A stretch of DNA of 14,778 bases, taken from positions 1 to 14,778 of the forward strand of contig JBEKSC010000041.1 in NCBI GenBank assembly GCA_049517415.1. The letters are read 5' to 3'. The stretch comes from Candidatus Bathyarchaeia archaeon. GTDB lineage: Archaea > Thermoproteota > Bathyarchaeia > 40CM-2-53-6. The position numbers and the translations under genes are program-made. The notes under the pieces were generated by a model, which was given only the letters and a program-made list of their open reading frames with translations, made no database searches and was not told where the DNA came from. This document shows, one piece after another, positions 3 to 14,778 of the stretch (within the stretch, counting starts at the first letter, position 1; every line of letters starts with the position of its first letter).

Positions 3-329
3 CTAAACGTACTTTGAGATGAGGCCTAGGAGTCCGCCTAGTAACACGAGGATGCCGCCAATGCCTCCGCCGAGAAAACCAACGATGATCAGAACAATAG
101 CCCACTCGAGTTCAGTGACACGTTTGGCTAGGATAATTGCCACTATTCCCAGAATCAAGGGGAGGAAAGCGAAGCCAAACGTCATCCCTACCAGTGGGAC
201 GCTGAAGGGCATTGAAATGGCATGTCCGATAAGTGCCAGGATGTTCAAAAGTACCAGTAGAATGCCGCCAATGAGGACGAGGTAATAGGCAGCCCGATCC
301 AACCCGTGTGTTTTAACCAAGTTTCTCAA
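3..329 (-). CDS. Small integral membrane protein (108 aa, 3-4 predicted TM helices), hypothetical
   Basis: TTG start; almost entirely hydrophobic, with a Gly-rich C-terminal hairpin (GFLGGGIGGILVLLGGLLGL). No family recognised with confidence. Confidence 0.7.
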   Translation of the reverse strand: MRNLVKTHGLDRAAYYLVLIGGILLVLLNILALIGHAISMPFSVPLVGMTFGFAFLPLILGIVAIILAKRVTELEWAIVLIIVGFLGGGIGGILVLLGGLLGLISKYV

Positions 330-390
330 TCGAGATTGTTTTACGAGCTGCTAGATAGCCTTATCTATGCTTCTACGCGGCGATGTTGAT

Positions 391-462
391 CTACACTAAG
401 TGTACACACAGAACGAAACAACACAGCGTGTCTGGGTCAGCTGGTGCGCGCGCATACACTTT
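391..462 (-). repeat. Intergenic palindromic repeat family: one clear copy (426-462) and one degenerate copy (391-414)
   Basis: Reverse complement of 426-462 is AAAGTGTATGCGCGCGCACCAGCTGACCCAGACACGC, matching the GCGCACCA-nnn-GAC-n-CA(C/G)ACAC core at 7027, 9533-9629 and 10335-10429. 396-414 (CTAAGTGTACACACAGAAC) is a weaker match. Confidence 0.55.
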
Positions 463-557
463 CGGGGATTGACCGACGCTTGCTGGATAGTTTGATGCAA
501 AGTCAAACAGTCGGCGTGCTGGTCTCTCTCAACTCGCAACTCACTAACCATTAACAG

Positions 558-565
558 TTTTATTT
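558..565 (+). promoter_or_regulatory. Putative archaeal TATA box for the ferritin-like gene (probably leaderless transcript)
   Basis: TTTTATTT centred ~25 nt upstream of ATG 587; no RBS before the ATG. Confidence 0.45.
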
Positions 566-586
566 GAGAAATCCAATACGCGAAGT

Positions 587-1888
587 ATGAAGTCTGAGGA
601 GAAAGAGAAACCCATCGAAATCGACAATCGTTCAGCCCTAATCTACACACTGTCGGACGCTGCCACTCTCGAGCACATGGTTATGTGCGGTTACTTATTC
701 GCCACCTTCAGCCTGAAACGCGAGGAGAGCGAAAGGCTGAGCGCACAACAGCTGAATACTGTTCAGCGATGGGATCGAGCCCTTACGGCAGTTGCAGTCC
801 AAGAGATGTTGCACCTGGCCCTCGTGAACAATCTGCTGAGCGCTGTCGGCGGCCCACCAAGCTTCGATAGACCGAATTTTCCCCAACGTTCGAAGTATTT
901 TCCGTCTGCAGTTCAGATGGTTCTCCTCCCGTTCGGAGAAGATGCTCTCCGACATTCCCTCTTTCTGGAGAGACCAGAGGGAATGAAAGTGGAGGACGCG
1001 GAGGCTCTGATCAACGCGCCGGCAGAGGAGAAGAAGACCGTGCAACTAGAAGGTATGATGCCATCTCATCAGGAATTCTCTAGTGTCGGTCATTTGTACA
1101 GGGGCATAGAGCAAGGCATACATGAACTAGCGAAAAAGTACGGCGAAAGGAACTTGTTCGTAGGATCACGAAAGGCACAAGCAACCAAGAAATTCTTCGG
1201 GTGGGATAAGCTTGTCCCAGTAAGTGATGTCTCATCTGCAACGGCGGCAATTGAGGAGATCATTATCGAAGGCGAAGGGGCGCGCGGAGATTGGAAGAAG
1301 GCTCACTTCGGTAAATTTCTTGCCGTTTACGAGGAATACAAGAAGATGAGGGAGAGTGATCCGGATTTTGAACCTGCCAGACCAGTAGTCCCAGCGTACG
1401 TAAGGTACCACGACGATGTCACGGAACCAATCGTGAAAATTTCTGACCCGTTAACGCTCAGGGTGGCTGACCTCTTTAACTCGACATACGAAATCATGCT
1501 TCAGTTGCTCACTCGTTTCTTTCTACACGTGGGCACGACGCCCGCTGAGCTTGAGGTTCTAGCCAACACCGCTGTGGATACAATGTATAGCGGAATCAGA
1601 CCGCTCGGAACATATCTGACCGCGCTCCCAATCGGACCCAACCTTCCTGGGAAAACTGCCGGCCCCGCATTCGAGATCTACCGTAGACACTCCTACCTGA
1701 TCCCCCACAGGCGCACGGCCTGGATCATCCTCAGCGAACGTCTTGCCGAACTCTCCGAGTACTGCGCATGGCTTAAGATGCTTCCGCAGGCACCGCCTGG
1801 GCTGGCCGAAATCGAAGAAGTATTGAAAAAGTGCGGGCAAGCGATTTCTCCGCGTGCGAAGACTGCGAGGCGTAGGCACAAGAATTAA
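587..1888 (+). CDS. Ferritin-like domain protein (VioB/RebD C-terminal-type, PF12902-like)
   Basis: Characteristic motifs LSDAATLEHMVMCGYLFATFSL, VAVQEMLHLALVNNLL (ExxH), FLERPE, IIIEGEG, AHFGKF and C-terminal LFNSTYEIML...PLGTYLTALP...AGPAF. Confidence 0.85.
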   Translation: MKSEEKEKPIEIDNRSALIYTLSDAATLEHMVMCGYLFATFSLKREESERLSAQQLNTVQRWDRALTAVAVQEMLHLALVNNLLSAVGGPPSFDRPNFPQRSKYFPSAVQMVLLPFGEDALRHSLFLERPEGMKVEDAEALINAPAEEKKTVQLEGMMPSHQEFSSVGHLYRGIEQGIHELAKKYGERNLFVGSRKAQATKKFFGWDKLVPVSDVSSATAAIEEIIIEGEGARGDWKKAHFGKFLAVYEEYKKMRESDPDFEPARPVVPAYVRYHDDVTEPIVKISDPLTLRVADLFNSTYEIMLQLLTRFFLHVGTTPAELEVLANTAVDTMYSGIRPLGTYLTALPIGPNLPGKTAGPAFEIYRRHSYLIPHRRTAWIILSERLAELSEYCAWLKMLPQAPPGLAEIEEVLKKCGQAISPRAKTARRRHKN

Positions 1889-1909
1889 AGGCCCAATTAC
1901 CATTCCTAA

Positions 1910-2368
1910 ATGGCTTCTGGGATGGAGATCATGAAACGACGAGGGACCGGGGGCGACCCGGTTATTGAAATGCTGGAAAAGGCGTCCCTGTGGTCAGGTC
2001 TGGACAGGAAGGACCTAAAATTCATAGTTCAGTTATCGAAGGAACGCAAGTATGAAACGGGAGAGGTTATCGTACGAAAAGGAGAGGGCACGGTAGGATT
2101 TTACCTAATCCTAGAAGGTTCTGTGGAGATCAGATCAAATGGGAGCACTCTGTCAAAACTGGGACCAGGGCAGTTTTTCGGTGAAATGTCAGTCGTCGAC
2201 AATCAACCTAGGTCGGCCGATGTGGTTGCCATAGAGCCCTCAAGGTGCCTAATTCTTTCTGCATGGTCGTTCAATTCGCTAATATCTGAGCATCCTAAGA
2301 TAGCGCTCAAAGTACTCCAGGAGTTCGTTCGTCGGCTCCGCAACACTAACAAGGCATTAACCGAATAG
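1910..2368 (+). CDS. Stand-alone cyclic nucleotide-binding (CNB/Crp-type) domain protein without HTH
   Basis: GEVIVRKGE, FYLILEGSVEI and phosphate-binding cassette LGPGQFFGEMSVVDNQPRSADVVA. Ends after the C-helix (RRLRNTN) with no DNA-binding domain. Alternative ATGs at 1922/1931. Confidence 0.9.
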   Translation: MASGMEIMKRRGTGGDPVIEMLEKASLWSGLDRKDLKFIVQLSKERKYETGEVIVRKGEGTVGFYLILEGSVEIRSNGSTLSKLGPGQFFGEMSVVDNQPRSADVVAIEPSRCLILSAWSFNSLISEHPKIALKVLQEFVRRLRNTNKALTE

Positions 2369-2557
2369 ACCAAACCATTACACGCTGAAATTCCGTAGGC
2401 AAGAACCGTTACCTGCAGGCTTACTACCGAGCACGCCTCCAAGTCATCAACACCGCAGATATTCCGACTTCCAATTCACACATTTCCTACTCTCCATATG
2501 GTTTTCTATCTCTGAGTTGCGAGAGGCGAACCAATTTATTGCTGAGGCCGGCGAGTC

Positions 2558-3364
2558 ATGTCGAAAAGTGGTGTTGAGATGAGGGTGGTCATCATAGGTT
2601 CGGGTGCCTCCTGGCCGGACTCCGAGAGAGCCGCCCCAAGCCAAGTGATAGTGGCAGGTGACGAATCACTGCTCTTCGACTGCGGGCCTGGCACGGGAAT
2701 GAACTTAATGAAAGCAGGCATCAGCCCCGCGGCAGTAAGCCGGATGTTCCTCACACACCTACACATGGACCACTGCCTCGAGTTTCCATCCATAGTTTTC
2801 GAAGGTTACCTCGTTGGTAGAAAAGAAAAAGTGTACCTATACGGTCCACCCGGCGCGGCGGATTTCTGCAAGACATTGTTCGAGAAAATCTACCCATCCG
2901 CACCTCAGATCGTAAGAAGATTGCGAGAAGATGGGTGGAAGGTTGAACCATATGAAGCAACTAAAGGCCTTGTATGCCAAACAGACAGTTACCGAGTGCT
3001 TTCAACTCCAGTGGAGCATGGGATTCCGGCAGTTGCATATCGGTTAGAGACTGGGGAAGGCACGGTAGTAATTAGCGGCGACACAAGACCTTCCAAATCC
3101 CTGATCGAGCTGGCTAAAGGCGCCGACTTACTGATTCACGAATGTTCATTCCCAGACGATATGATCGAACTCGCGCGACTGACGAATCATTCTGCAGCAT
3201 CAGAAGTTGGAGAGGTGGCAAATCAGGCAGGGGTTGAAAAGGTAGTTCTGACGCATTTGTTCCCGCTATGGAAAGGAAGAGAGAAGGAAATGGTCAAGAG
3301 TGTGAACAGCAAGTTCGGCGGCGAAGTTATAGCAAGCCATGATCTCCTCGAAATCAAAATCTGA
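2558..3364 (+). CDS. Metallo-beta-lactamase-fold hydrolase, RNase Z/AtsA-like subfamily (lacks tRNase Z flexible arm)
   Basis: LLFDCGPG, THLHMDH (HxHxDH), VEHG, ISGDT, DLLIHEC, NHS and VLTHL motifs. Alternative start ATG 2579. Confidence 0.88.
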   Translation: MSKSGVEMRVVIIGSGASWPDSERAAPSQVIVAGDESLLFDCGPGTGMNLMKAGISPAAVSRMFLTHLHMDHCLEFPSIVFEGYLVGRKEKVYLYGPPGAADFCKTLFEKIYPSAPQIVRRLREDGWKVEPYEATKGLVCQTDSYRVLSTPVEHGIPAVAYRLETGEGTVVISGDTRPSKSLIELAKGADLLIHECSFPDDMIELARLTNHSAASEVGEVANQAGVEKVVLTHLFPLWKGREKEMVKSVNSKFGGEVIASHDLLEIKI

Positions 3365-3526
3365 AATCCGCAGCGAGCGCGTGATAGGTATCAACACCCC
3401 GCTGTGCCACTCATTGCGGGTGTAGTCATAAGCGTAATCACGATCTGCATAGTCAGTGGCCACCGCAAACACGAAACGAGTTTGAAATAAAGGTGAAATA
3501 GCGGGTCCGTAGAAATGGGATTTAGG

Positions 3527-3537
3527 TTTTCTTTTTT
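3527..3537 (+). terminator. Possible archaeal oligo-T terminator
   Basis: TTTTCTTTTTT in the intergenic region downstream of the MBL gene. Confidence 0.3.
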
Positions 3538-3601
3538 GCGTACGACGAACGAACGGTGGATGGATCCAGCAAACGGGCTTGGTTACAGCTAGGTGATGGT
3601 T

Positions 3602-4048
3602 TTGGGTGATTTGCAGTCCGTGATGGAGAAGTCTTTGGCCCAAGCGAGTCCTCATTCTAGGAAGGTGTATGGTCAGAACCCCCTGACCGCTAAAGAGGTT
3701 CTTGAGCTAGCTAACACTCACGTCTTGATCCTGGCCGCTACGGTAAAAGCAGAAGGAAAACCCCACCTCTCCCCTGTAGATCTTGTTGCTGTCGAGGGAA
3801 CAATCTATGTGGGAGTTGACGAAGCTACAGCCCGCTACAAGAACCTCAAACAGAACCCCGCAATTACGATGATGATCGCTGACGGATGGAAACGCCAAGC
3901 CATCTTGCAAGGAGTTGCACATTTCTTGGACAGCAAAAGTGAACGGGCAAGGAAAGCGCTGGAGGCAGAGAAGGAGAAGTACGGCTGGACTACTGAAGCC
4001 ATCGCTGAGTTCTCACCAGAGAAAGCGTTCACTTGGAAAGCTACGTAG
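3602..4048 (+). CDS. Pyridoxamine 5'-phosphate oxidase-like (split-barrel FMN/F420-binding) protein
   Basis: ILAATVKAEGKPHLSPV and RYKNLKQNPAITMMI motifs. Start placed at TTG 3602 because AGGTGA (3591-3596) is a well-spaced archaeal RBS; the ORF is open from 3593. Confidence 0.8.
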   Translation: MGDLQSVMEKSLAQASPHSRKVYGQNPLTAKEVLELANTHVLILAATVKAEGKPHLSPVDLVAVEGTIYVGVDEATARYKNLKQNPAITMMIADGWKRQAILQGVAHFLDSKSERARKALEAEKEKYGWTTEAIAEFSPEKAFTWKAT

Positions 4049-4092
4049 GCAAAAGCCCTCTGGAAAAGTGGTGATGAATACTGGATGAGGAG

Positions 4093-4737
4093 TTGCGGTA
4101 TTATCATGGCGAAAAGATCGAAGTGACTTGGAGTGCCAAGCGCTGCATCCACGCAGCCGAGTGTACGTCCCGGCTTGCCGCCGTGTTCGATACGAGCCGA
4201 AAGCCCTGGGTCCTTCCGGACGCCGCAACAGCGGATCAAGTAGCCGAAACAATCATGCATTGTCCCACTGGGGCATTGCACTTTACCCGCAAAGACGGCG
4301 GCCCACCAGAAGTTCCGGATTCGGTTAACACAATTTCTATGGACCTCAACGGCCCGCTCCACGTGCGTGGCGAGATTGTGGTCGAGACGCCCGACGGTGA
4401 GTTCGTGCTAAGGGATGTGCGCATGAGTTTGTGCCGCTGCGGCGCATCAAAAAACAAACCGTTCTGTGACAACAGCCATGAGGAGGTCGACTTTCAGCAC
4501 AACGGTCTCTTGGGCGAAAACAAGACAAAAACTGAGAAAGTCCTACCGCAAACCGGCCCGTTGAAGATCATTCCATCTGAGAATGGACCATTTCATATGC
4601 GCGGCCCCTTTGAGGTACGCGGACAAGATGGGACAGTTTACAGGGGTAACAAAGTTACCATATGTCGCTGCGGCAGATCAAGCAACAAACCGTTTTGCGA
4701 CGATACCCATCTGCACATCGGCTTTCAGAGCAAGTAG
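4093..4737 (+). CDS. Fe-S protein: N-terminal divergent 4Fe-4S (Fer4_19/YjdI-like) domain plus two CDGSH-type 2Fe-2S domains
   Basis: RCIHAAEC...VFD...KPW...HCPTGAL, then SLCRCGASKNKPFCDNSH and TICRCGRSSNKPFCDDTH. True start may be the in-frame CTG at 4081, which follows GGTGA at 4070-4074. Confidence 0.9.
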   Translation: MRYYHGEKIEVTWSAKRCIHAAECTSRLAAVFDTSRKPWVLPDAATADQVAETIMHCPTGALHFTRKDGGPPEVPDSVNTISMDLNGPLHVRGEIVVETPDGEFVLRDVRMSLCRCGASKNKPFCDNSHEEVDFQHNGLLGENKTKTEKVLPQTGPLKIIPSENGPFHMRGPFEVRGQDGTVYRGNKVTICRCGRSSNKPFCDDTHLHIGFQSK

Positions 4738-4860
4738 GGTACAATACACACTTTTGCGTTCAACATGCTTCGCCTATTTCATTACTGGGAACTCACGCAG
4801 TCAGTTTGGAACGAAAGCCAATCCGAGAGTTAGGTGGACTACCCGCGGAGACGCCTAGGC

Positions 4861-4866
4861 TTATAA
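4861..4866 (+). promoter_or_regulatory. Putative TATA box for the cyclase-TPR gene
   Basis: TTATAA ~40 nt upstream of TTG 4905, with RBS-like GGAG at 4891-4894. Confidence 0.4.
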
Positions 4867-4904
4867 TTCGCGCGGCCAAACTTTGGGAATGGAGCCAAAT
4901 AATC

Positions 4905-6872
4905 TTGCAAGATGCCGAGCAACCTAGAGAGGACCGGAAGCTGGCAGCAATTATGTTAACCGACTTGGTTGGTTTTACTTCTATGGCCCAGAGTAACGAA
5001 GCTCTTACGATGGAAATCCTCGATGAGCATAAGCAGATGGTACGCCCAATCCTCCAGAGATACGGTGGACTGGAGATTAAGACGATGGGTGACGCCTTCC
5101 TAGTCGAGTTTCCCAATGCGCTGGACGCTGTTCGGTGCGCTGTTGAAGTCCAAGAAGAGAATCGCAGAGTCAACTCAGGCCGCTCGCCCGAGAGAAGGGC
5201 GATGATCCGAATTGGGATTCATGTGGGCGACGTGATACACAACAAAGGAGATATCTTCGGTGACGCTGTCAACATTGCGTCTCGGATTGAACCCCTCGCA
5301 AACCCCGGTGGGGTCTGCATTTCGGAACAAGTGTATGACCAGGTATGGAACAAGGTCGATTTTCGTCTGGTGAAGATGGAGTCGCGGAAGTTCAAGAACG
5401 TAAGTATCCCTACTGATGTCTACAGTGTAGAGATGCTCCGGGAGGAGAAGGCGGCGCAGACAGTCGAGCTCGACAGACTAAGAGTCGCCGTGCTCCCCCT
5501 TAGCAATATGAGTCCTGATCCAAACGACGAATACTTCGCCGACGGAATGACGGAGGAATTGATTACGGCCTTATCTGGGATTAGCGGACTCACCGTTATC
5601 GCCAGAACTTCGGTGATGCCCTACAAGACTGCAGTAAAGCGGGTCGCGGAGATAGGTCGGGAGCTTGGGGCCGGGACCATCATCGAAGGAAGCGTGCGAA
5701 AAGCAGCCAATAAAGTCAGAATTTCCGTGCAGGTCATCGATGCGAGAAATGAAGGGCATCTATGGGCGCAGAATTACGACAAGGAGCTGAACGATGTCTT
5801 TGCCGTTCAAAGCGAGATTGCCGAGAAGGTGGCCGAGACGCTTAGGGTGAAGTTGCTTGAGTCAGGGAAGCGGAGGTTGGAGACGGCTCCCACTGAGAGC
5901 AGTGAAGCGTACACATTGTACCTGAAGGGCAGGTACTACTGGAACTTAAGGAGCAAGGAGGCAATGGAGAAGGCAATCGAGCACTACAAGGCGGCAGTGG
6001 AAGCAGACCCTGGATTTGCGCTTGGATACTCGGGACTCGCAGAATGCTACGGGACCTTGGCAAGAACCGGCCAAGCTGACCCGGTGACCGTGTACACAAA
6101 AGCAACACCGTATATAATGAAGGCACTCGAGCTTAACCCGAACCTAGCCGAGCCCCACGCAGACCTGGGAGCGTTCATGTTTGATTACGAGCACAAACCA
6201 AAGGAGTCCGAGTCAGAGTTTAGGAAGGCCATAGAGCTCAATCCGAACTATGCCAACGCCCACCAGTTCCTCTCGCACGTGTTATGTTCGGAGAGGCGTT
6301 TCACCGAAGCCTTCGCCGAAATCAGGAGAGCAGTAGAGCTTGACCCTCTCTCTCGATTCATCAACCTAAGCCTAGGAGATGCTCTCTACTATCTGGGGGA
6401 ATATGAAAAAGCAATAGAGCAATTCAAGAAGGTCGTTGAGTTGGATCCGAATTATGATGAGGTCTACCCCAGCCTAATCCAGGCTTACCTGCGGAAATCC
6501 ATGTACGACGAGGCACTTAGAGCGGCTGAAAAATACGCTGAGCTCTCAGGGAATTCATTAGAGTCGAAACAAGTGAAGGCGTACGTTTATGCATCGATCG
6601 GGAACAAGGAAGAAGCGCACAAGCTTCTGGCACAGGTTAAAGAGCGGTTCGGGGAAGAATTCCTCAGCTCTTACTTGATGAGCATTATTCACTTCGTTCT
6701 AGGAGAAACCGATGAGGGCTTTGAGTGGCTCAACAAAGCGTACAACCAACGCGACGCGAACATTACGTTGATGAACATCGACACAGAACTTGAAAACGTC
6801 AAATCCGACCCTCGATTCGTCTCACTCCTCGAGAAAGTGGGTTTGAGTGGAGAGTATAGCGCTTCGGCTTGA
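4905..6872 (+). CDS. Class III adenylate cyclase with TolB-like domain and C-terminal TPR repeats
   Basis: RKLAAIMLTDLVGFT, IKTMGDAF, RIGIHVGDV and [15 protein letters not shown]; then VAVLPLSNMSPDPNDEYFADGMTEELITALS (TolB-like N-terminal domain); then multiple TPRs (AIELNPNYANAH, VELDPNY). Start moved from 4662 to TTG 4905, just ahead of the catalytic domain. Confidence 0.92.
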   Translation: MQDAEQPREDRKLAAIMLTDLVGFTSMAQSNEALTMEILDEHKQMVRPILQRYGGLEIKTMGDAFLVEFPNALDAVRCAVEVQEENRRVNSGRSPERRAMIRIGIHVGDVIHNKGDIFGDAVNIASRIEPLANPGGVCISEQVYDQVWNKVDFRLVKMESRKFKNVSIPTDVYSVEMLREEKAAQTVELDRLRVAVLPLSNMSPDPNDEYFADGMTEELITALSGISGLTVIARTSVMPYKTAVKRVAEIGRELGAGTIIEGSVRKAANKVRISVQVIDARNEGHLWAQNYDKELNDVFAVQSEIAEKVAETLRVKLLESGKRRLETAPTESSEAYTLYLKGRYYWNLRSKEAMEKAIEHYKAAVEADPGFALGYSGLAECYGTLARTGQADPVTVYTKATPYIMKALELNPNLAEPHADLGAFMFDYEHKPKESESEFRKAIELNPNYANAHQFLSHVLCSERRFTEAFAEIRRAVELDPLSRFINLSLGDALYYLGEYEKAIEQFKKVVELDPNYDEVYPSLIQAYLRKSMYDEALRAAEKYAELSGNSLESKQVKAYVYASIGNKEEAHKLLAQVKERFGEEFLSSYLMSIIHFVLGETDEGFEWLNKAYNQRDANITLMNIDTELENVKSDPRFVSLLEKVGLSGEYSASA

Positions 6873-7026
6873 ACACGATAAGATACGACCGAAGACAAAC
6901 TTACCGGCTCCCGACAAGACTGGCTAGAAGACTGAGAGCAATCTCAAGCTGGTAGGCTTGCATTTGTCTACACTCTCAAGCCGTATCCTCCTGGTTAATG
7001 CGTAATTCGAATCGCCATCGTCAGGA

Positions 7027-7049
7027 ATTGTGTGTGCGCGCACCATTGA
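7027..7049 (+). repeat. Intergenic palindromic repeat family, left-arm copy
   Basis: ATTGTGTGTGCGCGCACCATTGA is nearly identical to TTTGTGTGTGCGCACCATTAG at 9596-9616 (one extra GC). Lies between convergent genes. Confidence 0.6.
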
Positions 7050-7093
7050 GGTTCATTCATCACCTTATCCCGAGTAGTAAAGCAAGTTTGAAA

Positions 7094-7624
7094 TTATTGA
7101 GGAGTCTTTCCTATTTTGCTGAACATTAACCATTTTGGCACCCTACTCTGATAATTTGCATACTTCCCGCCAAGTACTCTCAACAGATCCTTTTCCTCGT
7201 AACTCGCCATCCAATCGCACAAAACAAGAAAAATCACCCATATTGCAAATGCAATCAACGAAAACTTCAAAAAAAGAAAGCCAACCAAAATCATCATGGT
7301 TCCAAGATACATCGGGTGACGGACAAGGGAATAAACGCCGGAATCCACGAACTCAGGTTTGCCTGCCTTGCCGAAAACCGCGGCGTGCGACTCCTTAATC
7401 AGATATGCTCCAACCGCGATGAGAAAAACCGCGGGCAGAAGAAGAATTGGATACGCGGAAACTCTTGCCAATATACTCGAATATCCAAAGGAAACGGTGC
7501 TGATATCATCTAACAACATCACAACAATGTACGAACCTATCAATACAATCTGTATTCTGTCCCATAGAGCATGCTCGGAACCCAATCTAACGTGCTTTAC
7601 CGGAATTTCTGACACCCCGTTCAA
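7094..7624 (-). CDS. Isoprenylcysteine carboxyl methyltransferase / PEMT-family membrane protein
   Basis: FVDSGVYSLVRHPMYLG and EEKDLLRVLGGKYANYQSRVPKW motifs; several TM segments. Confidence 0.88.
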   Translation of the reverse strand: MNGVSEIPVKHVRLGSEHALWDRIQIVLIGSYIVVMLLDDISTVSFGYSSILARVSAYPILLLPAVFLIAVGAYLIKESHAAVFGKAGKPEFVDSGVYSLVRHPMYLGTMMILVGFLFLKFSLIAFAIWVIFLVLCDWMASYEEKDLLRVLGGKYANYQSRVPKWLMFSKIGKTPQ

Positions 7625-7892
7625 TAATCATGTTGTTGAGATATTCTATCTATTTGCCTGAAGAGCTGACCAAAAACTAGTTCGATTGACCGAATTGTTC
7701 ATTTTCTATTTTCTTCTGGTTTTGTCCCCTTGATGCTGCAACACCATCGAAGTTCTTGTCTGAATCATACTTCATGATTGATCCTCATAAGGCATTGGCA
7801 TTTGCGGGAAAACATTTCGAGCTGGTCCAGGGATACAAGGCCTAGGGACGGGTGGCTTGGAAGACCACACGGTTGACCGGGCCAAAGTTGCC

Positions 7893-9275
7893 TCAATTGC
7901 TTGAGATACCTATGTCAATTGCTGAATGAATTGCCCTGACCGCATCCGGAACATCGGCTTCATTGAGTATGAGGATTACTTGAGACGTGTGAGGTGCAAA
8001 GACGCCTCGTTTGATGTTTATGTTGGGAATAGAATGTATGGCCTTTGATGCAATGCCAGGGGATGTTCTCATCTTGTCCCCGACAAGAGTGACTATTCCT
8101 ACACCATATTCGACCTGCATTTCTTTGTCAAATGACCTTAGCTGCTTCTCATACTTCCTGACAAAGTTAGCGTCCAGAATCAGAAAATCGCGTAGAACCT
8201 GCCCGGTATCCATGACTTCCGCTCCAAGATCAAGGAAACCATCATAGTCCTCCCAAAGCCTAAGACAATCTTCAAGTGATCTGCTCTTCTCGTTGTTCAT
8301 TGTTATGATGGCGCAGTTCCTTGAGCCCGTTACACATTTGACAGTCTGATTGGTCGTGTCGTCTCTTTGTATCATAGTCCCTAGCGTTGGGTTCGAAAGA
8401 GGTGCAACCATGATTGTAAGGTTGTGCGACCTTGCAATTCTCACTGCTGCATTCTGAACTATGTTCATCCCAGCTATTGTCGCTTTTTGTGCTTCGTTAT
8501 AGGTCATCATTGGAACTCTCTCGAGCGGCTGATCTTTGACTATGCTTGGATCGGCAGTCTGCACAGGTGTATCCTTGAACAGAATCGTCTCAACGGCGAA
8601 GTGGCTGCTCAACAGTCGGGAGAGGAAGACCGCTGTCTGGTCGGATCCACCTCTTCCCAACACCGTTTCAAGACCATCATGAGTCAAGCCCAGAAACCCA
8701 CCAACTGTAACAACTTTTCCGTCTTCTAACAGACTTAGAAGGCCAGATAGGTTCTTGGCGCTCATCTCGTAATCTGGTGTAGCGTTTTCGAAAATGTCAT
8801 CGGTTATTATTGGCCACAATACCTTGTCAAGATGGCATGAGTGTACCGCTTCCGAGTTCAGGACGTAACTCATCAGAGCTGCGGTTGGTAACTCGCCTCC
8901 CGAGGTGAGCACCTTAGCCCGATTTACGCCATCGAATCGTCTATCAACTTTTGCAAGAGTCTTTTCAACCTCATTCTTCAACCCAGCAAGCACGCTTTGG
9001 CAATCCTTGAGAAGTTGTTCTCCTACTACGTGACGCAAAGCAAAGTCTGAGTAAGAAGCGAATATTGAATCAAGGTCATAATCTGAACCCAGAGCTTTGG
9101 CTTCGCCAATTGATTGGAGTCTGTCAGTGACACCTTTCGGTGCAGAGAAGATTGCAAGAGGGCCAAGATCTTTAGCCTCTTTAAGCTCTATGATGCGTTT
9201 GACAATTAAGCTGATGTTACTTCCGGTGAGATCTACCAAACTTCCGCCAAACTTAATGACTGCTATGCTCTTCAA
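7893..9275 (-). CDS. lysC: Aspartate kinase with C-terminal ACT-like region
   Basis: VIKFGGS, FSAPKGVTDRL, SGGE, GGFLG, LGRGGSDQTA, TADP and MTYNEA; ACT-like VTLVGDKMRTSPGIASK...AVRAIH. Start moved to TTG 9275 so that KFGGS lies near the N-terminus, as usual in the family. Confidence 0.88.
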   Translation of the reverse strand: MKSIAVIKFGGSLVDLTGSNISLIVKRIIELKEAKDLGPLAIFSAPKGVTDRLQSIGEAKALGSDYDLDSIFASYSDFALRHVVGEQLLKDCQSVLAGLKNEVEKTLAKVDRRFDGVNRAKVLTSGGELPTAALMSYVLNSEAVHSCHLDKVLWPIITDDIFENATPDYEMSAKNLSGLLSLLEDGKVVTVGGFLGLTHDGLETVLGRGGSDQTAVFLSRLLSSHFAVETILFKDTPVQTADPSIVKDQPLERVPMMTYNEAQKATIAGMNIVQNAAVRIARSHNLTIMVAPLSNPTLGTMIQRDDTTNQTVKCVTGSRNCAIITMNNEKSRSLEDCLRLWEDYDGFLDLGAEVMDTGQVLRDFLILDANFVRKYEKQLRSFDKEMQVEYGVGIVTLVGDKMRTSPGIASKAIHSIPNINIKRGVFAPHTSQVILILNEADVPDAVRAIHSAIDIGISSN

Positions 9276-9532
9276 GTTGTCACATCTCGGCCCTACAGCT
9301 ACTTGCTGGATTCTGTCTCTAAACGATATGTAATCATCCTTATGGCCTGAAGCATGAGAGCTGGAACGTCTAGCTTGAATGCCGCCTATTAACGCACTCG
9401 TGTCCGCCTTCCCGTGAACAATGCTCGCAGTGAGCGTATTTGTCTGTGCAAGCGTCGACATATCCTCAGTGCTAGTGATTCAGTTTTCATTGCCTAAAGG
9501 TCCGCAGGGAGTGTCGTTGATGGTATACGTGA

Positions 9533-9629
9533 TTGGTGTGTGCGTCCAATAGTGCGTGCATCCAAATTTGAACCATCGTCGTTCGTTCGTAAAAGTTTGT
9601 GTGTGCGCACCATTAGACACACACAGAAA
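9533..9629. repeat. Inverted doublet of the palindromic repeat (37-bp arms, 23-bp spacer)
   Basis: 9533-9569 versus the reverse complement of 9593-9629: 27/37 identical without gaps, mostly transitions. Each arm is itself an imperfect palindrome. Confidence 0.75.
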
Positions 9630-9680
9630 AATGACCCAACCTTCCAATTGAGATAGGTATAAGGCTGCAGGAGATTGGAA

Positions 9681-10334
9681 ATGCCAAGGCCGAGAGTAAG
9701 GGAACCTGAAGGCGTTACAGGGCAATTAACCACAGAATCATACGATCGCATGATGCGGAGCCTCATGAAGAAAGGCTACCTTGATACCTCTAAACTCATC
9801 AAGGCCGGCATTAACTCGGGAACTGCGCTTGAGGTCGGCCCTGGCCCCGGGTATTTGGGAATCGATCGGTTGACGAAAACCTCCAACACTTTCCTGAAGG
9901 GGTTGGACATCAGCGCGGACATGGTGAGAGTAGCTCAGCGAAATGCGACTGAATTCCATGTGGATGACCGAGCTGCATATTTTTTGGGCGATGCGCGGCA
10001 AATTGTGTTCGACGATGAAACATTTGATGCCGTCTTCTCAAACGGCTCCTTGCACGAATGGTCTGACCCAAGAATCGTCCTTAACGAGATTCATCGCGTC
10101 TTGAAACCCGGCGGGGTGTATTACATAAGCGACCTACGTAGGGATATGAGTCTCTTCGCAAGAGTACTCTTGCAACGGGCTATACCTAAAGAAAGAAAGC
10201 AAGGTTTTCTCATGTCACTCAACGCTTCCTACGCGACAGACGAAATAGCACCAATTTTGAGTGAAACCAAGTTGAGCAAATGTAAGGTATCGCGGGAATT
10301 TTGGACAATTGCAATAACCGCGAAGAAGACGTGA
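9681..10334 (+). CDS. Class I SAM-dependent methyltransferase (UbiE/Methyltransf_11-like)
   Basis: ALEVGPGPG (motif I), GLDISADMV, GDARQIVFDDETFDAVFSNGSLHEW and EIHRVLKPGG. TATAAG at 9658-9663 precedes ATG 9681; an in-frame TTG lies at 9675. Confidence 0.9.
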   Translation: MPRPRVREPEGVTGQLTTESYDRMMRSLMKKGYLDTSKLIKAGINSGTALEVGPGPGYLGIDRLTKTSNTFLKGLDISADMVRVAQRNATEFHVDDRAAYFLGDARQIVFDDETFDAVFSNGSLHEWSDPRIVLNEIHRVLKPGGVYYISDLRRDMSLFARVLLQRAIPKERKQGFLMSLNASYATDEIAPILSETKLSKCKVSREFWTIAITAKKT

Positions 10335-10429
10335 TTTGTGTGGTACTACTGGTGCGCACCCCCGAACTACTCCACCAATAACGATTGTTCAATTTGCGTT
10401 GCCCGTACCATTGGACCCACACACGCAAC
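10335..10429. repeat. Second inverted doublet of the palindromic repeat, starting immediately after the methyltransferase stop codon
   Basis: 10335-10368 (reverse complement AGTTCGGGGGTGCGCACCAGTAGTACCACACAAA) and 10392-10429 (ATTTGCGTTGCCCGTACCATTGGACCCACACACGCAAC). Centres are 62 bp apart versus 64 bp in the 9533-9629 doublet. Confidence 0.6.
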
Positions 10430-10507
10430 TGCACGGATCCACAATTCAATCGGCAAAACAGAGCCGGTAGATTGACGCAGTAGAGAGTGGGTCGGATCAC
10501 AATTGGG

Positions 10508-11143
10508 TTAGTTTAGTTCTGGGACTCGCCTTGTTAGCTCGGCCCAGTCTCCGCCAACAGTCTCTCGTATGAGAGCCTTGAGTCCAGCGAAAACTTGCGG
10601 AGGCATGAGAGTCATCCAGCCCCTGGTGACCACGGCACGGTCGTCATGGCCTAGTAGCGGGAAAAGCCACCGAACAACAGTGGGATTTCTGTCAGGGGGG
10701 ATCTTTCTAGCCATCGTCCCCACGATTGAGGCTTGCTCGCTTTCTGTAGTTCGCTCTCGCAGAATTGGGTACAAATGAGCGTCTTCCTTGTTAAGGTGAA
10801 TTCTCAGAAAGGCGTTTAGAACAGCTGTCGCCCTTGCCGCTGTCAATGAATCTGGTGCTGTCCGCATCGCTTCCAGTCCAGCAACCATTATGTCCAGTTC
10901 ACGATGGTCCAAAAAGTAGGCCTTCGCTACAAGCGGCGCTACCTTGTCGAGAGCAGGGAACACGGCCTCCTCCTCACCCTTCGCGTGATAGTCCAGAATT
11001 TCTCCTGTAACGTGAAGTCGATCCAAAACGCGAGTCATGTCCCCACCGTTCCGCGCCGCTTTGAAAGCAGCCTCATTGGCTTCCAGCGTGTCACGACGAA
11101 ATGCATTGTGTAAACAAAGCACTATGTCAATCGGCCCAGACAT
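10508..11143 (-). CDS. Hemerythrin/HHE cation-binding domain protein
   Basis: LHNAFRRD, YHAKGEEEAVFP, DHREL and IHLNKEDAHLYP: the H...HxxxE...H...HxxxE pattern. Confidence 0.88.
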   Translation of the reverse strand: MSGPIDIVLCLHNAFRRDTLEANEAAFKAARNGGDMTRVLDRLHVTGEILDYHAKGEEEAVFPALDKVAPLVAKAYFLDHRELDIMVAGLEAMRTAPDSLTAARATAVLNAFLRIHLNKEDAHLYPILRERTTESEQASIVGTMARKIPPDRNPTVVRWLFPLLGHDDRAVVTRGWMTLMPPQVFAGLKALIRETVGGDWAELTRRVPELN

Positions 11144-11269
11144 AGCCTATATTCTCCCGCGATACTCTTCGTTAGTGGGTATTTCACGTTATCCATACCG
11201 TATGTTATCGTTTTGTTAGTGTGTGAGGACGTAAGGATATGAAAGCCGAACGCAGTCGAAGAGCAGTCT

Positions 11270-11458
11270 TCACTTGTCAACCCAGATGAGACTAGGATGT
11301 ATTGGACAGTTCTTTGCACGATTCGACGTATTGGCTTTAATCTGATCTAATATTTCGTTGTTTATGAAATTCCCGAATGATGGATCAAACCAGGATTCCT
11401 CTTCATTTTTTTCCAGTATTACCCGTACCTGTGCGCGTTTTTCATCCACTGGAGCCAT
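11270..11458 (-). CDS. Small hypothetical protein (62 aa)
   Basis: ATG 11458 (or ATG 11467) in a GGGAGG context; fills an otherwise empty gap in the same orientation as the hemerythrin gene; TTAAAAG TATA-like element on the - strand near 11507-11513. No recognisable motif. Confidence 0.4.
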   Translation of the reverse strand: MAPVDEKRAQVRVILEKNEEESWFDPSFGNFINNEILDQIKANTSNRAKNCPIHPSLIWVDK

Positions 11459-11521
11459 CCCTCCCATTCGCTGTCGCTCAGAACATTTCAATTCCCACGC
11501 CCGACGCTTTTAACTCCACCC

Positions 11522-11605
11522 GCGGAGGCCCCACTGGTTACTGGAGTAAGGTCGAGGTTGGATTGGCCTTTCACTAGAGTGCAAACCAGAGGATGAGGCC
11601 TTCGT
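11522..11605 (+). other. Long imperfect stem-loop (candidate structured RNA or 5' leader element)
   Basis: Nested pairings GCGGAGGCC/GGCCTTCGT, CTGGTT/AACCAG, CTGG/CTAG and AAGGTCGA/TTGGCCTT around loop GGTTGGA; several G-U pairs favour the + strand. Confidence 0.4.
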
Positions 11606-11667
11606 TAATTTCCTGAACCTCTAAGACTTTATCTACATCTCTCCCCTATTTCCGGCTGTTCATACAA

Positions 11668-12765
11668 TTGTCTGAAGAGCGCAAACTTGCGGCAATAATG
11701 TTCACTGACATCGTAGGGTACACTGCGCTCACCCAAGAAAATGAATCGCTCGCGATGCAGATCTTAGATCTTCAGCGCAGTATCGTTCGACCGATCTTGG
11801 CAAAGTATGCCGGGCATGAGATAAAGACGATCGGGGACGCATTTCTAGTCGAGTTCCCAAGCGCGTTACGAGCGGTCCAATGCGCAACTGACATCCAGAA
11901 AAGTTTTGCAGACCAAACATCGCAGCAGGGCAAGAAAATGCTTCTGCGCATAGGAATTCACATCGGGGACGTGATCTTTCGTGAAGGGGACGTTTATGGA
12001 GACGCTGTGAACATTGCCTCCCGCATTGAACCGCTAGCAGAGCCAGGCGGCATCTGTATTTCACGCGAGGTCTATGCTCAGGTCTGGAACAAGATTGGGT
12101 ATAAGACCATTGAGCTTGGTGAACGTGAACTCAAGAACGTGCAATCTCCAGTCATTGTCTATTCTGTCCTGCCGCAAGCGGTGGATAAAGAAGTTCAACC
12201 TTCCCAATCCGTGAAATCAAGTCTACTTTCGGACGATCTTGGGAAGGAGCTTGAAGGTTTAGAGAACCCCGTTGTTCTAGGTCTAATGGACCCGATACGC
12301 TATCAGGAATCCGTTTTGAGGTTAATGCGCTACTTTACTAGCAGATCGCCGCGGGGAGTCTACGTGACCCTCAACAAGCCGTATGCGACGCTGCTGAAAT
12401 CCTTCGATAGGGCTGGGATACCGGCCGACTCTGTTTTCTTCGTTGACGCGATCACGGACGTTCCATCTGTCGAAGAAGATGCGACGCACGCGTGCGTAGG
12501 TTCGGGCGTCGATTTGAGCACCCTCGGCGTATGCATCTCGAAAGCCGTCAAACAAATCAAAGAAGACAGGTTCCTATTACTCGACAGCCTGTCAACTCTC
12601 CTAATCTACTACGATGCCAATGCCGTAGTCAAGTTCGCGCATCTCCTCACGGAGAAGATGCGCAGCTGGAACAGTTCAGGTTCGCTAATAACGGTGGAAA
12701 CGAATTCCGAGCGGGATCTGGTTTCGCAGCTTTCGCCTTTCTGCGACAAGGTCGTGAAGATATGA
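11668..12765 (+). CDS. Class III adenylate cyclase fused to a C-terminal degenerate KaiC/RecA-like ATPase domain
   Basis: [23 protein letters not shown] and [16 protein letters not shown]-terminal [40 protein letters not shown] and [11 protein letters not shown] resemble the KaiC/RAD55-like fold, but there is no GxxGxGK[ST]. Confidence 0.87.
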
Positions 12766-13778
12766 GCTCACGGCAAGGTGGCACAATAAGCCTGCCGGCT
12801 CTCGACTCGTTGCTTTACGGCGCCGCTAAGGCGTTCGACTATCTGGGCGATGAGGGGCAGGAGATGCTTGACAACGTCGGCGGGGGCATAGTGGAGTACT
12901 TAGTGAAGAAGGGGATCCTTCAAGAATCAAAGGACCCCATGCAGATGACTTTTCAGATAGCCAACATCTTTCGGGAGAACGGCTACATTGCCCAGGTGAG
13001 TCTCACTCCGAAAGGCGAAGCATACTCGGTTACGATGCAAAATTGGAATTATCTTCCTCTCATGAAGAACCTCCGCAATAAGGGATCCATCCTCCTGGCC
13101 TGTCCAATGTGCATCGCCAACAATTCGGTTCTAAGGTCGAATTCGCTCGCGTGGAAAAGGGTTAGTGAGGAAGTGGATAGTGATGGCAACTACTTTGAGC
13201 AGATGGAGCTTGTTCCTTATGGGGAGGGTCAGGCTACGCCAAATCCGTCAGCATTAGCCGACCTGACGGCCATCCCAGAAGCGACCTCGGATACGCACGT
13301 TGGAATACCCGTATTCGAGGCTGTGGAGTATGGCTTGATTCACGGCTTTGAGTATTTGGGGGCGCAAGCAGAACTCTTCCTAGACGCCATTGGCAGGGGA
13401 ATACTGGAATTCGTAAAAGAGGAGGCTGGCTTGCAGCATCCAGATGATCTAAAAGACGCGACGAAGGCTCTGGCCAGTTTCTTCACCAAGAACGGCCTAG
13501 CGGACCGGATAGACGTACAATTATCGCCGGCGGACGTTAGGGTGGAATTCGAGAACTACCGCTCTGCACCCGTTTTGGAGCAAGCTCTGAGTGAAGGGTT
13601 GAGGTCTGTTTCATGCCCCTTCCTTCTTGCGTTGAAGGCTCTGCTGCGTAGGGACGGGCGAATCGTAGAAGAGTCGAAGTGGGATTTCAGGACCGGGGCC
13701 AACGCGAGTCTCGTGATGAGGCTTCGTGGAGTGGCCGATGAATTTGACGCTGAAAAAATCAGCGCCTTAATGGATTAA
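12762..13778 (+). CDS. Hypothetical protein (338 aa) with two tandem homologous V4R/HNOX-like ligand-binding-type domains
   Basis: ATG 12762 overlaps the cyclase stop (ATGA). Internal duplication: [37 protein letters not shown] / [43 protein letters not shown] / FTKNGL; LACPM / VSCPF. The fold assignment is inference. Confidence 0.7.
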
Positions 13779-13982
13779 GACGGAGTGCAGAATTCTCCAC
13801 CCTCACTCGATATGATAAGTGATCCACGCGCCGTTGCTCAAACAACGTAACGGCGACTGGTTATTCTAATGAGCAGGCCTCCCGTTCGTCACGAATGTGG
13901 TAGCGTTCTCGTCACGAGTTTATTGATTTCCTGAATTTCGAATTACATTAGAAGTTAAGTACTGACCGAACCTCGTGAATCT

Positions 13983-14778
13983 CTATGGACCGTTGCCGGT
14001 TCCTGAAGTATGCGGGTTTGTTGGGGTTTGTTGGGTTCCGCATTTCCCGCAGAACCGGTCAGGCTGATTCAAGTGGTTGCCGCAATTGCGACAATAGTAT
14101 CCTGTCCCACCGTAACTCTGCGGCGACTTACCGGTCCTGGAGTTGGACAGCAAGAGCAGGAACACGCTAGCTCCCAATAGTATCAAAAGAACTGCTATTG
14201 CGAATCCGTAGAATGGGGCTGAAGAGTTGTCTGTCGTTGCGACCACGCTAGTGAAGGTGCTCAGAACCATTGCGGGGGTAGGAGTCGAAGTTGTCGTCTC
14301 GGTTGCGTAGCTTGTTTGGGTGACAACGCTGCTCTCCGTTGTAGTGGTTTGGTACGGGTTGTTTGAGTATGGGTTAGAGTAGTTTGGGGAGGTGGAGTAG
14401 TACGGGTAACATGCGTTCGGGTTATTCGGATCCACAAAGCAGCTGTAGTACGATGAATAGTAGAGTGAGGTTGGGTACGGGGAGGGGTACGGGTAGGTCA
14501 GGTACAGGTAACATACGTTCGGGTTATTCGGGTCCACGAAACAATTGTAGGCTGGAGCATAGTAAATGTAGTAAACAGGGTAGCCCGAGTACCCCCCATT
14601 GTACCCACCATTGTAACCCCCATTGTAGCCCCCATTGTAACCCGAGTAGCCCGACCAAGTATGTGAACCCGACCAGGTATGTGAACCCGACCAGGTATGT
14701 GAACCCGACCAGGTATGTGAACCCGACCAGGTATGTGAACCCGACCAGGTATGTGAACCCGACCAGGTATGTGAACCC
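13983..14778 (-). CDS. 5'-truncated single-pass membrane protein: repeat-rich N-terminal region, Thr/Ser linker, TM helix, C-terminal zinc ribbon
   Basis: The frame stays open from the window end: (GSHTWS)x7-GYSG-(YNGG)x4-YSGYPVYYIYYAPAYNCFVDPNNPNVC...; TM FYGFAIAVLLILLGASVFLLLL; zinc ribbon YCRNCGNHLNQPDRFCGKCG. Confidence 0.82.
   Translation of the reverse strand, partial: GSHTWSGSHTWSGSHTWSGSHTWSGSHTWSGSHTWSGSHTWSGYSGYNGGYNGGYNGGYNGGYSGYPVYYIYYAPAYNCFVDPNNPNVCYLYLTYPYPSPYPTSLYYSSYYSCFVDPNNPNACYPYYSTSPNYSNPYSNNPYQTTTTESSVVTQTSYATETTTSTPTPAMVLSTFTSVVATTDNSSAPFYGFAIAVLLILLGASVFLLLLSNSRTGKSPQSYGGTGYYCRNCGNHLNQPDRFCGKCGTQQTPTNPHTSGTGNGP
14407..14550 (-). repeat. Two ~42-bp direct repeats (period 102 bp) encoding YxCFVDPNNPNxCY
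   Basis: taacatgcgttcgggttattcggatccacaaagcagctgtag (from 14407) versus taacatacgttcgggttattcgggtccacgaaacaattgtag (from 14509). Confidence 0.85.
14592..14639 (-). repeat. 4 x 12-bp coding tandem repeat (YNGG)
   Basis: nccnccattgta x4; units differ only at third codon positions of the - strand frame. Confidence 0.85.
14650..14778 (-). repeat. At least 7 x 18-bp near-perfect coding tandem repeat (GSHTWS), running off the window end
   Basis: cccgaccaggtatgtgaa repeated without spacers; only the unit at 14650 differs, by one synonymous base. Confidence 0.95.

Follow-up and report, generated by a model that had tools for sequence, protein, structure and literature searches.

Dispersed intergenic repeats of a Bathyarchaeia genome as likely integration junctions of a Cas1 casposase

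Integron arrays and pdif modules are runs of mostly single accessory genes with short recombination sites between them, and they are shared across species. Casposons have been proposed as the ancestors of CRISPR adaptation, and the casposon target has been argued to be equivalent to a leader-repeat junction that could build arrays (PMC5137440). The target-site duplications of Methanosarcina mazei casposons are 14 bp long with an invariant CGCA (PMC4779613), and integration is abolished by mutating either CGCA or the upstream base pairs 12-17 (PMC6977970). The motif of the Aciduliprofundum boonei casposase is TCAAATC at positions -15 to -9 from the duplication (PMC6614799). The present analysis concerns a stretch of 14,778 nucleotides (the window) from a peat-dwelling Candidatus Bathyarchaeia archaeon of the lineage 40CM-2-53-6 (assembly GCA_049517415.1, contig JBEKSC010000041.1), and a family of short repeats dispersed between its genes. 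These repeats consist of 14-bp segments and CA-repeat tips, and are most likely the integration junctions of a family-2-type Cas1 casposase.

In the labels used below, G000 is the source genome (2.65 Mb, 59 contigs), C numbers are its contigs, and G and L numbers are the genomes and loci of relatives.

The repeat family and its target motif

The repeat family is real, numbers about 90 copies genome-wide, and is almost wholly intergenic. Of seven copies that an earlier note had listed in the window, six are present, while the weak leftmost one falls under the threshold in both position-weight and half-site scans. A profile built on the six copies gave 85 matches in the source genome (E<=10), and a scan with refined position-weight matrices returned 109 sites at 16 bits or more, versus none in each of two dinucleotide shuffles. 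A half-site scan of this genome found 98 sites, of which 86 are junctions and 12 are the ends of real tRNA genes, with 0 and 0 in two shuffles. The junctions fall in 23 clusters, and only two of the 86 lie in the cores of open reading frames (ORFs), although such cores make up 71% of the genome. The intergenic confinement claimed in the earlier note is therefore upheld, as is its argument against ordinary operators, since sites occur on either side of genes and as back-to-back pairs. The arrangement seen in the window is not a misassembly, because single contigs of four public runs (possibly the source runs) span 310-14500 or more. Rfam and tRNA scans of the window gave no match.

Alignment of the sites reveals a central 14-bp segment, CGCACCA plus seven variable bases, with CACACAC starting directly at its right. 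The left half is of two types. In the first (44 sites in the source genome), it is an inverted tip, GTGTG(T/C)G. In the second (50 sites plus five real tRNA ends), it reads GGTTCAAAT-N6-GCC, and together with CGCACCA it reads like the generic 3' terminus of archaeal tRNA genes, except that the T-stem is lost. TCAAAT(T/C) occupies positions -15 to -9 relative to the 14-bp segment. This leader pattern occurs with the correct gap at 25 sites of the source genome, and with a gap one base shorter at none. A column profile places the start of the tips exactly outside the 14-bp segment that begins CGCA. The 50 T-loop mimics keep 0-3 of the five T-stem pairs, and broken tRNA genes are ruled out as leader sites by this lack of a T-stem. 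At the level of sequence, the published target rules of casposases, namely a 14-bp duplication with CGCA and the spacing of the T-loop motif, match the junctions exactly. The sites are most likely casposase target-site duplications together with terminal inverted repeats.

The palindromic appearance of the repeats comes from a pair of element ends, with inverted tips, on either side of a single copy of the 14-bp target. Of the copies in the earlier note, 9533-9569 and 10392-10429 are of the T-loop kind and non-palindromic. Similarly, the proposed CCA-T-TGG core is one among many variants, with only CGCACCA fixed. The notion of dispersed sites of a recombination type was sound, but the REP/HUH and tyrosine-recombinase kinds that the earlier note suggested were not. 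As REP-like bulged hairpins spread by an HUH enzyme of the RAYT/IS200 type, the copies would be expected to fold. However, only one of the six in the window folds better than its own shuffles, the 14-bp interior is not self-complementary, and almost no two-sided (compensatory) changes between arms were found among 78 two-tip sites. The dispersed, intergenic, and partly palindromic copies fit such hairpins, and an AEP-like protein described below scores weakly with Y1 transposases in fold comparison (Z 5.0-5.5). Yet no HUH Y1 transposase (PF01797) was found in the 59 contigs, in a search whose controls were positive in 6 of 14 cases, and direct 14-bp duplications flank large elements. The REP-like explanation is accordingly very improbable, and the least probable of those considered.

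Bounded elements, their casposase, and the missing polymerase

Nine Cas1-bearing elements of 5-11 kb are each bounded by identical 14-mers. On C3, three sites with CGCACCACTATACC bound an 8.6-kb element that has an intact Cas1 and an 8.0-kb element that has a Cas1 fragment. The seven others were found in relatives (L066, L068, L070, L071, L091, L100, and L094). To judge from its sequence, L094 is the clearest case, a textbook insertion copy at a real tRNA-Pro end. Here, a 14-mer overlaps the tRNA-Pro gene's end, and identical 14-mers lie at 8145 and 17173, with 9.0 kb between them. A perfect inverted repeat of at least 60 bp starts with CACACACACAC, and the casposase is inside the element while a family B DNA polymerase (PolB) gene is outside it. 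The terminal inverted repeats of L068 match in 17 of their first 20 bases. A second tip type, a CCG repeat, has the same 14-bp target and pads, and belongs to a separate casposase subclade.

A directional test covered the source genome and 52 loci of relatives, which had been chosen near Cas1 or junction clusters. With a leader site upstream and a tip site downstream, the 7-nt tail of the 14-mer is identical in 16 of 55 pairs. The opposite order gives 1 of 40, and the unlinked background is 2.1-2.2%.

Solo Cas1 genes were detected by Pfam scans of 146 ORFs from repeat islands. The source genome has four Cas1 genes, two full and two fragmentary, all within or adjoining repeat islands, and no Cas2 was found in it. 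The earlier note correctly stated that no cognate enzyme is encoded in the window; a fitting solo Cas1 casposase is encoded elsewhere in the genome. The best PDB match of the C8 Cas1 is 6OPM, the M. mazei casposase (E 4.7e-69, residues 37-404), far above CRISPR Cas1 chains. Residues E168, H237, and E254, presumably the catalytic residues of the casposase, are invariant in 16 of 16 relatives. A quick tree was built from the 54 Cas1 rows that are of full length, out of 80 loci plus 2 own (fragments excluded). In it, the proteins of the source genome fall in a 22-row Bathyarchaeia clade (SH-aLRT 100) that is nested among PolB-linked family-2 casposases.

The elements share further traits with family-2 casposons: a stand-alone Cas1 with a C-terminal helix-turn-helix extension in the family-2 clade, terminal inverted repeats, target-site duplications of 14-15 bp, and a tRNA 3' end target with the T-loop motif at -15 to -9. 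What they lack is a PolB gene inside the element. PolB lies within 10 kb in only one of the 22 clade rows (L094, outside the element), versus 15 of 19 other family-2 rows, and two of three more basal Bathyarchaeia Cas1 rows retain PolB pieces. No PolB was found among the scanned ORFs of L030, L066, L068, L070, and L071, and some loci are cut by contig ends. A search for protein-primed PolB gave no match anywhere, its controls included. The host PolB genes on C9 and C46 were ruled out as casposon polymerases, as neither Cas1 nor a junction is nearby. The system appears to work like a family-2 casposon but departs from that family in its polymerase.

A small protein with AEP-like motifs is present in 14 of the 22 clade rows, usually alongside a basic protein and an AAA+ ATPase. 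At L030:13518-15176, these form a conserved three-gene module (AAA+ ATPase, basic protein, and an AEP-like protein of 109 aa), and the atlas clusters closest to it are for the most part viral. The DxD, xH, and hD motifs are invariant in 7 of 7 AEP-like proteins. The match to Pfam AEP-TOTE is weak (E 0.032), the atlas gives AEP-like at 0.89, and the best hit of a fold search is generic ferredoxin-like (Z 6.0), with AEPs at Z 4.5-5.0. PDB sequence searches with alignments of the AEP-like protein and the ATPase gave no significant match. Taken together, these data hint weakly that the AEP-like protein might be an archaeo-eukaryotic primase, and that with the ATPase it might form a replacement replication module of the PolB-less elements. 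Otherwise, the large elements appear to carry defence cargo (TIR, SIR2-like, HEPN, and HerA-NurA), while small units carry metabolic and regulatory genes.

The distribution of Cas1 also bears on whether the junctions could be sites of a tyrosine recombinase, of the dif-module or integron kind, in which inverted arms enclose an asymmetric core. The two-tip copies do resemble arms around a core, and their alternating orientations resemble those of pdif modules. The earlier note had proposed a search for a tyrosine recombinase gene among the copies, and one was found within a repeat-bounded element on C9. However, this island recombinase, the one among the tyrosine recombinases of the genome whose occurrence was traced, is present in only 3 of 59 family genomes, whereas Cas1 is inside every large bounded element examined. 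Further, the conserved unit that is duplicated is 14 bp with the tips outside it, and in half of the sites the left part is of the T-loop type, spaced as a casposase requires. A tyrosine recombinase is consequently very unlikely to be responsible. The junction consensus is without attC end motifs, no dedicated IntI/attC search having been made. Separately, two adjacent tyrosine recombinase genes lie beside a terminase and methyltransferases at C16:35000-47000 (L019), in a probable provirus that is unrelated to the junctions.

Landing pads, nested units, and their spread

Many units carry at one end a head of 30-60 bp, composed of a tip, a linker, a T-loop mimic, and a pad. A tip lies no more than 75 bp upstream of 73 of 156 leader sites, versus 2 of 151 in the control. 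In matched elements, the head adjoins either the proximal or the distal 14-mer, which argues that both orientations are used on insertion. G045 and G046 have units of 0.6-3.4 kb that lack the enzyme and show matching 14-mers, and three identical 14-mers occur in a row on C3 and in L066. In the methyltransferase unit of G042, the leader is joined directly to an empty pad, while in the window the end of another unit occupies this pad; the outer 14-mers of the two copies differ. Two identical head modules with different cargo were also observed at C39:282-346 and 4449-4513, with the same 14-mer ahead of each.

We propose that the casposase reads the tRNA T-loop motif plus CGCA, and would join the two ends of an element 14 bp apart, duplicating the target. 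The two intact copies elsewhere in the genome could move enzyme-less units in trans, which is plausible because in M. mazei an engineered mini-casposon that lacks the enzyme is mobile in vivo and forms tandems (PMC10359463). Each head-bearing unit would bring a new target, and later units could enter earlier ones facing either way. If any outer pair of tips served for re-mobilisation, the head would be copied with new cargo and unpaired 14-mers would be left, and this may account for the mixed orientations in the window.

Units of the window recur in other species (Table 1). G042 has a 94% identical copy of the methyltransferase unit (9618-10361), which is found in 1 of 22 congeners. A copy of the hemerythrin unit (10415-11225) with 86% identity lies between other 14-mers in G051. 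In both cases, homology ends at the tips. A 5.1-kb core stretch has identities of 70-75% (G042) and 69-75% (G051). Other junction-bounded segments are 91-97% identical between the source genome and relatives, and the unit from 34 to about 415, which has a small membrane-protein gene, is 87-89% identical in six relatives, where its right flank varies. Of 104 genomes of the order, 48 have the two-tip pattern (0 in a reverse-read control). Among these genomes, casposase-query matches were found in 36 of the 48 that are junction-positive versus 13 of the 56 that are junction-negative, and the 22 genomes of genus g2 have neither junctions (0/22) nor casposase matches (0/22). Outside the order, the leader-type pattern occurs in only 15 of 156 sampled genomes, with at most two matches each, and neither a casposase relative nor a junction was found in the viral contigs searched.

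A number of observations weigh against the casposase reading. The pairs of the directional test are non-independent and come from preselected loci, and in the source genome alone same-strand tails are identical in 5 of 114 pairs against a background of 2.1%, which means that relatives supply most of the directional signal. An identical 14-mer on the same strand within the window is lacking for all six window sites, and the short tips of the C3 element match in only 11 of their first 20 bases. There are almost as many segments with inward-pointing 14-mer pairs (28) as there are simple direct ones (34), and nested or composite transposition would therefore be needed. Some 7-base tails recur over loci and genomes beyond what is expected of random host DNA. 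In the co-occurrence count, kin are non-independent, some of the 13 matches in junction-negative genomes resemble CRISPR-type Cas1, and 12 of the 48 junction-positive relatives gave no casposase match, including the near-complete G046 (14 junctions) and G047 (16 junctions). Finally, in the assembled contigs of seven public runs, depth was flat and no credible empty-site or circle joint was found, although assembled contigs lose rare variants. Joints seen in these contigs were rejected as excision products, as their sides of about 21-33 nt fit other copies of the repeat.

Much of this would suit a history in which the casposase scars are old and the cassettes are now reshuffled by homologous recombination of the host acting on similar tips or junctions, or by excised circles with a 14-mer, the arrays being largely fossil where the enzyme has been lost. 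The inward-facing pairs and unpaired 14-mers, the recurring tails, the lack of movement in the runs, and the junctions of G046 and G047 all point this way. An artificial casposon has also been reported to switch orientation through recombination of its terminal inverted repeats (PMC5137440), and a target-carrying circle has been hypothesised for M. mazei (PMC10359463). Against this, perfect 14-mer pairs flank small enzyme-less units in the predicted order, the sharing between species is recent, ends at the tips, and involves different outer 14-mers, and the source genome has two intact casposases. We therefore regard a largely fossil system as unlikely, albeit the most credible of the alternatives considered.

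Table 1. Junctions, units, and head modules of the window, and elements with CCG-repeat tips
Feature	Position	Strand	Parts or basis
Decayed site at best	391..414	+	inside unit 34 to about 415, below threshold
Two-tip junction	426..459	-	element end 449-459, 14-bp target copy CGCACCAGCTGACC 448-435, next tip 434-426
Accessory gene block between two outward-facing junctions	460..7027	+	gene content, flanking junction sites
Distal-type junction	7028..7052	+	tip 7028-7038, 14-bp target copy CGCACCATTGAGGT 7039-7052, no tip behind
Cargo	7053..9542	-	PEMT/ICMT-like methyltransferase 7094-7624, aspartate-kinase-like gene 7893-9461, end tip ~9534-9542
Head module	9543..9605	-	tip 9605-9595, linker, T-loop mimic GGTTCAAAT ~9575-9566, pad CGCACTATTGGACG 9556-9543
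14-bp target copy CGCACCATTAGACA, tip on either side	9606..9619	+	site scans
Tip-bounded cassette, class I methyltransferase gene 9675-10334	9620..10342	+	homology to G042 unit
14-bp pad CGCACCAGTAGTAC of methyltransferase unit, occupied in the window	10343..10356	-	comparison with G042
Head module	10357..10417	+	variant tip CACCCCC, linker, T-loop mimic GTTCAATT, pad CGTACCATTGGACC 10404-10417
Tip-bounded cassette, hemerythrin-domain gene 10508-11143	10418..11225	-	homology to G051 unit
Elements with CCG-repeat tips	L066:6079-17058, L068:7591-14749, G000 C9:21030		same 14-bp target

The block at 460..7027 includes genes for ferritin-like, cNMP-binding, metallo-beta-lactamase-fold, PNPOx-like, CDGSH, and adenylate-cyclase-TPR proteins. 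Class III adenylate/guanylate-cyclase domains are encoded at 4662-6872 and 11668-12765, one with TPRs and the other with a KaiC-like domain, and with the cNMP-binding protein these two genes could form a cyclic-nucleotide signalling set in one block. The site at 448(-) matches C16:813(-). The window contig (C41) and C16 terminate in an identical 18-bp coding repeat, and the frame reads as one gene. Most of the window may accordingly be one 15-kb unit, but the tail of that site is found in 5 of 94 sites. This probable single gene spans both contig ends (window 13983-14778 and C16:1-330), and has a signal-like start, a (GSHTWS)n repeat, a Tyr-rich region, a membrane helix, and a zinc ribbon.

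An end sequence that starts with ATGAAAA(G) adjoins junction tips in four places, C2:163(-), C47:8987(+), C8:85767(-), and L183:17216-18303. An IS110-family transposase gene or fragment is next to it in two of the four, and an IS110 element may target casposon junctions. A crude CRISPR scan gave two matches with near-constant 60-90-bp spacing, and a 20-mer at C3:1071, present 10 times and mostly at 60-bp spacing, is probably a coding repeat.

Comparison with known systems

A broader interpretation can be advanced only tentatively, and we consider it somewhat less probable than not. It is possible that one order of Bathyarchaeia has a working gene-cassette system driven by Cas1. In it, the enzyme would come from PolB-less casposons that have a primase-helicase module, and cassettes without the enzyme, each with its own tRNA-mimic leader, would build self-renewing leader-repeat-insert arrays that trade whole accessory genes between species. 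As a living intermediate, such a system would connect casposons with CRISPR arrays, and it would also be the integron's counterpart based on Cas1, kept for the benefit of the host.

On the casposase reading itself, the target has come loose from tRNA genes, has been multiplied some 90-fold in each genome, and now sits in the ends of mobile units, natural enzyme-less cassettes being the inserts. This would explain the source of much accessory gene content in abundant soil and peat archaea. It would also provide hundreds of natural substrates for testing Cas1 target choice, casposon excision, and the need for PolB, and offer a site-specific, one-protein integrase that takes kb-size cargo and lands at a site of 32 bp.

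Neither casposons, with or without PolB, nor arrays of this kind were found described for Bathyarchaeia in a search that left most subscription journals and supplements (e.g., the tables of terminal inverted repeats and duplications of PMC4779613) outside its scope. In the literature searched (including PMC6563490, PMC13343696, and PMC5137440), tandem casposons, solo terminal inverted repeats, and intergenic targets are already known. Within the same scope, the search found no clade devoid of PolB, no non-autonomous cargo units of natural origin, and no targets carried by the elements themselves.

The closest described relatives are the family-2 casposons of M. mazei (MetMaz-C1 and the tRNA-Leu copies; PMC4779613, PMC6977970, PMC10359463). 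They share a solo Cas1 with a C-terminal extension, terminal inverted repeats, the 14-bp CGCA duplication, targets at tRNA 3' ends and look-alike intergenic sites, tandem insertions that share duplications, and solo terminal inverted repeats. In contrast, the delimited Bathyarchaeia elements are without PolB, and there are about 90 junctions per genome rather than one to three elements. The Bathyarchaeia are also set apart by cargo units that naturally lack the enzyme, by targets in element ends, and by CA- or CCG-repeat tips. With the A. boonei casposon (PMC6614799, PMC5137440), the system has in common the position of TCAAATC and, as in L094, a target at the 3' end of tRNA-Pro. That casposon is a single PolB-carrying element at a real tRNA gene, whereas the Bathyarchaeia have mostly stemless mimics and nested arrays.

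CRISPR arrays are built of 24-47-bp repeats and 26-72-bp spacers (PMC4779613), dimensions that the junction arrays do not have, and Cas2 is likewise missing. Like CRISPR leader-repeat arrays, however, they appear to use Cas1 chemistry, with a leader motif that sets the site and a repeat that is duplicated with each insertion. The differences lie in the 14-bp repeat, the inserts of 0.6-11 kb with tips of their own, the mixed orientation, and the lack of any sign of guide RNAs. From integrons and pdif modules, the system differs in enzyme family and site anatomy, and in duplicating its target rather than exchanging strands conservatively. If the junctions are what they most likely are, these arrays make the proposed path from casposon to CRISPR directly testable.

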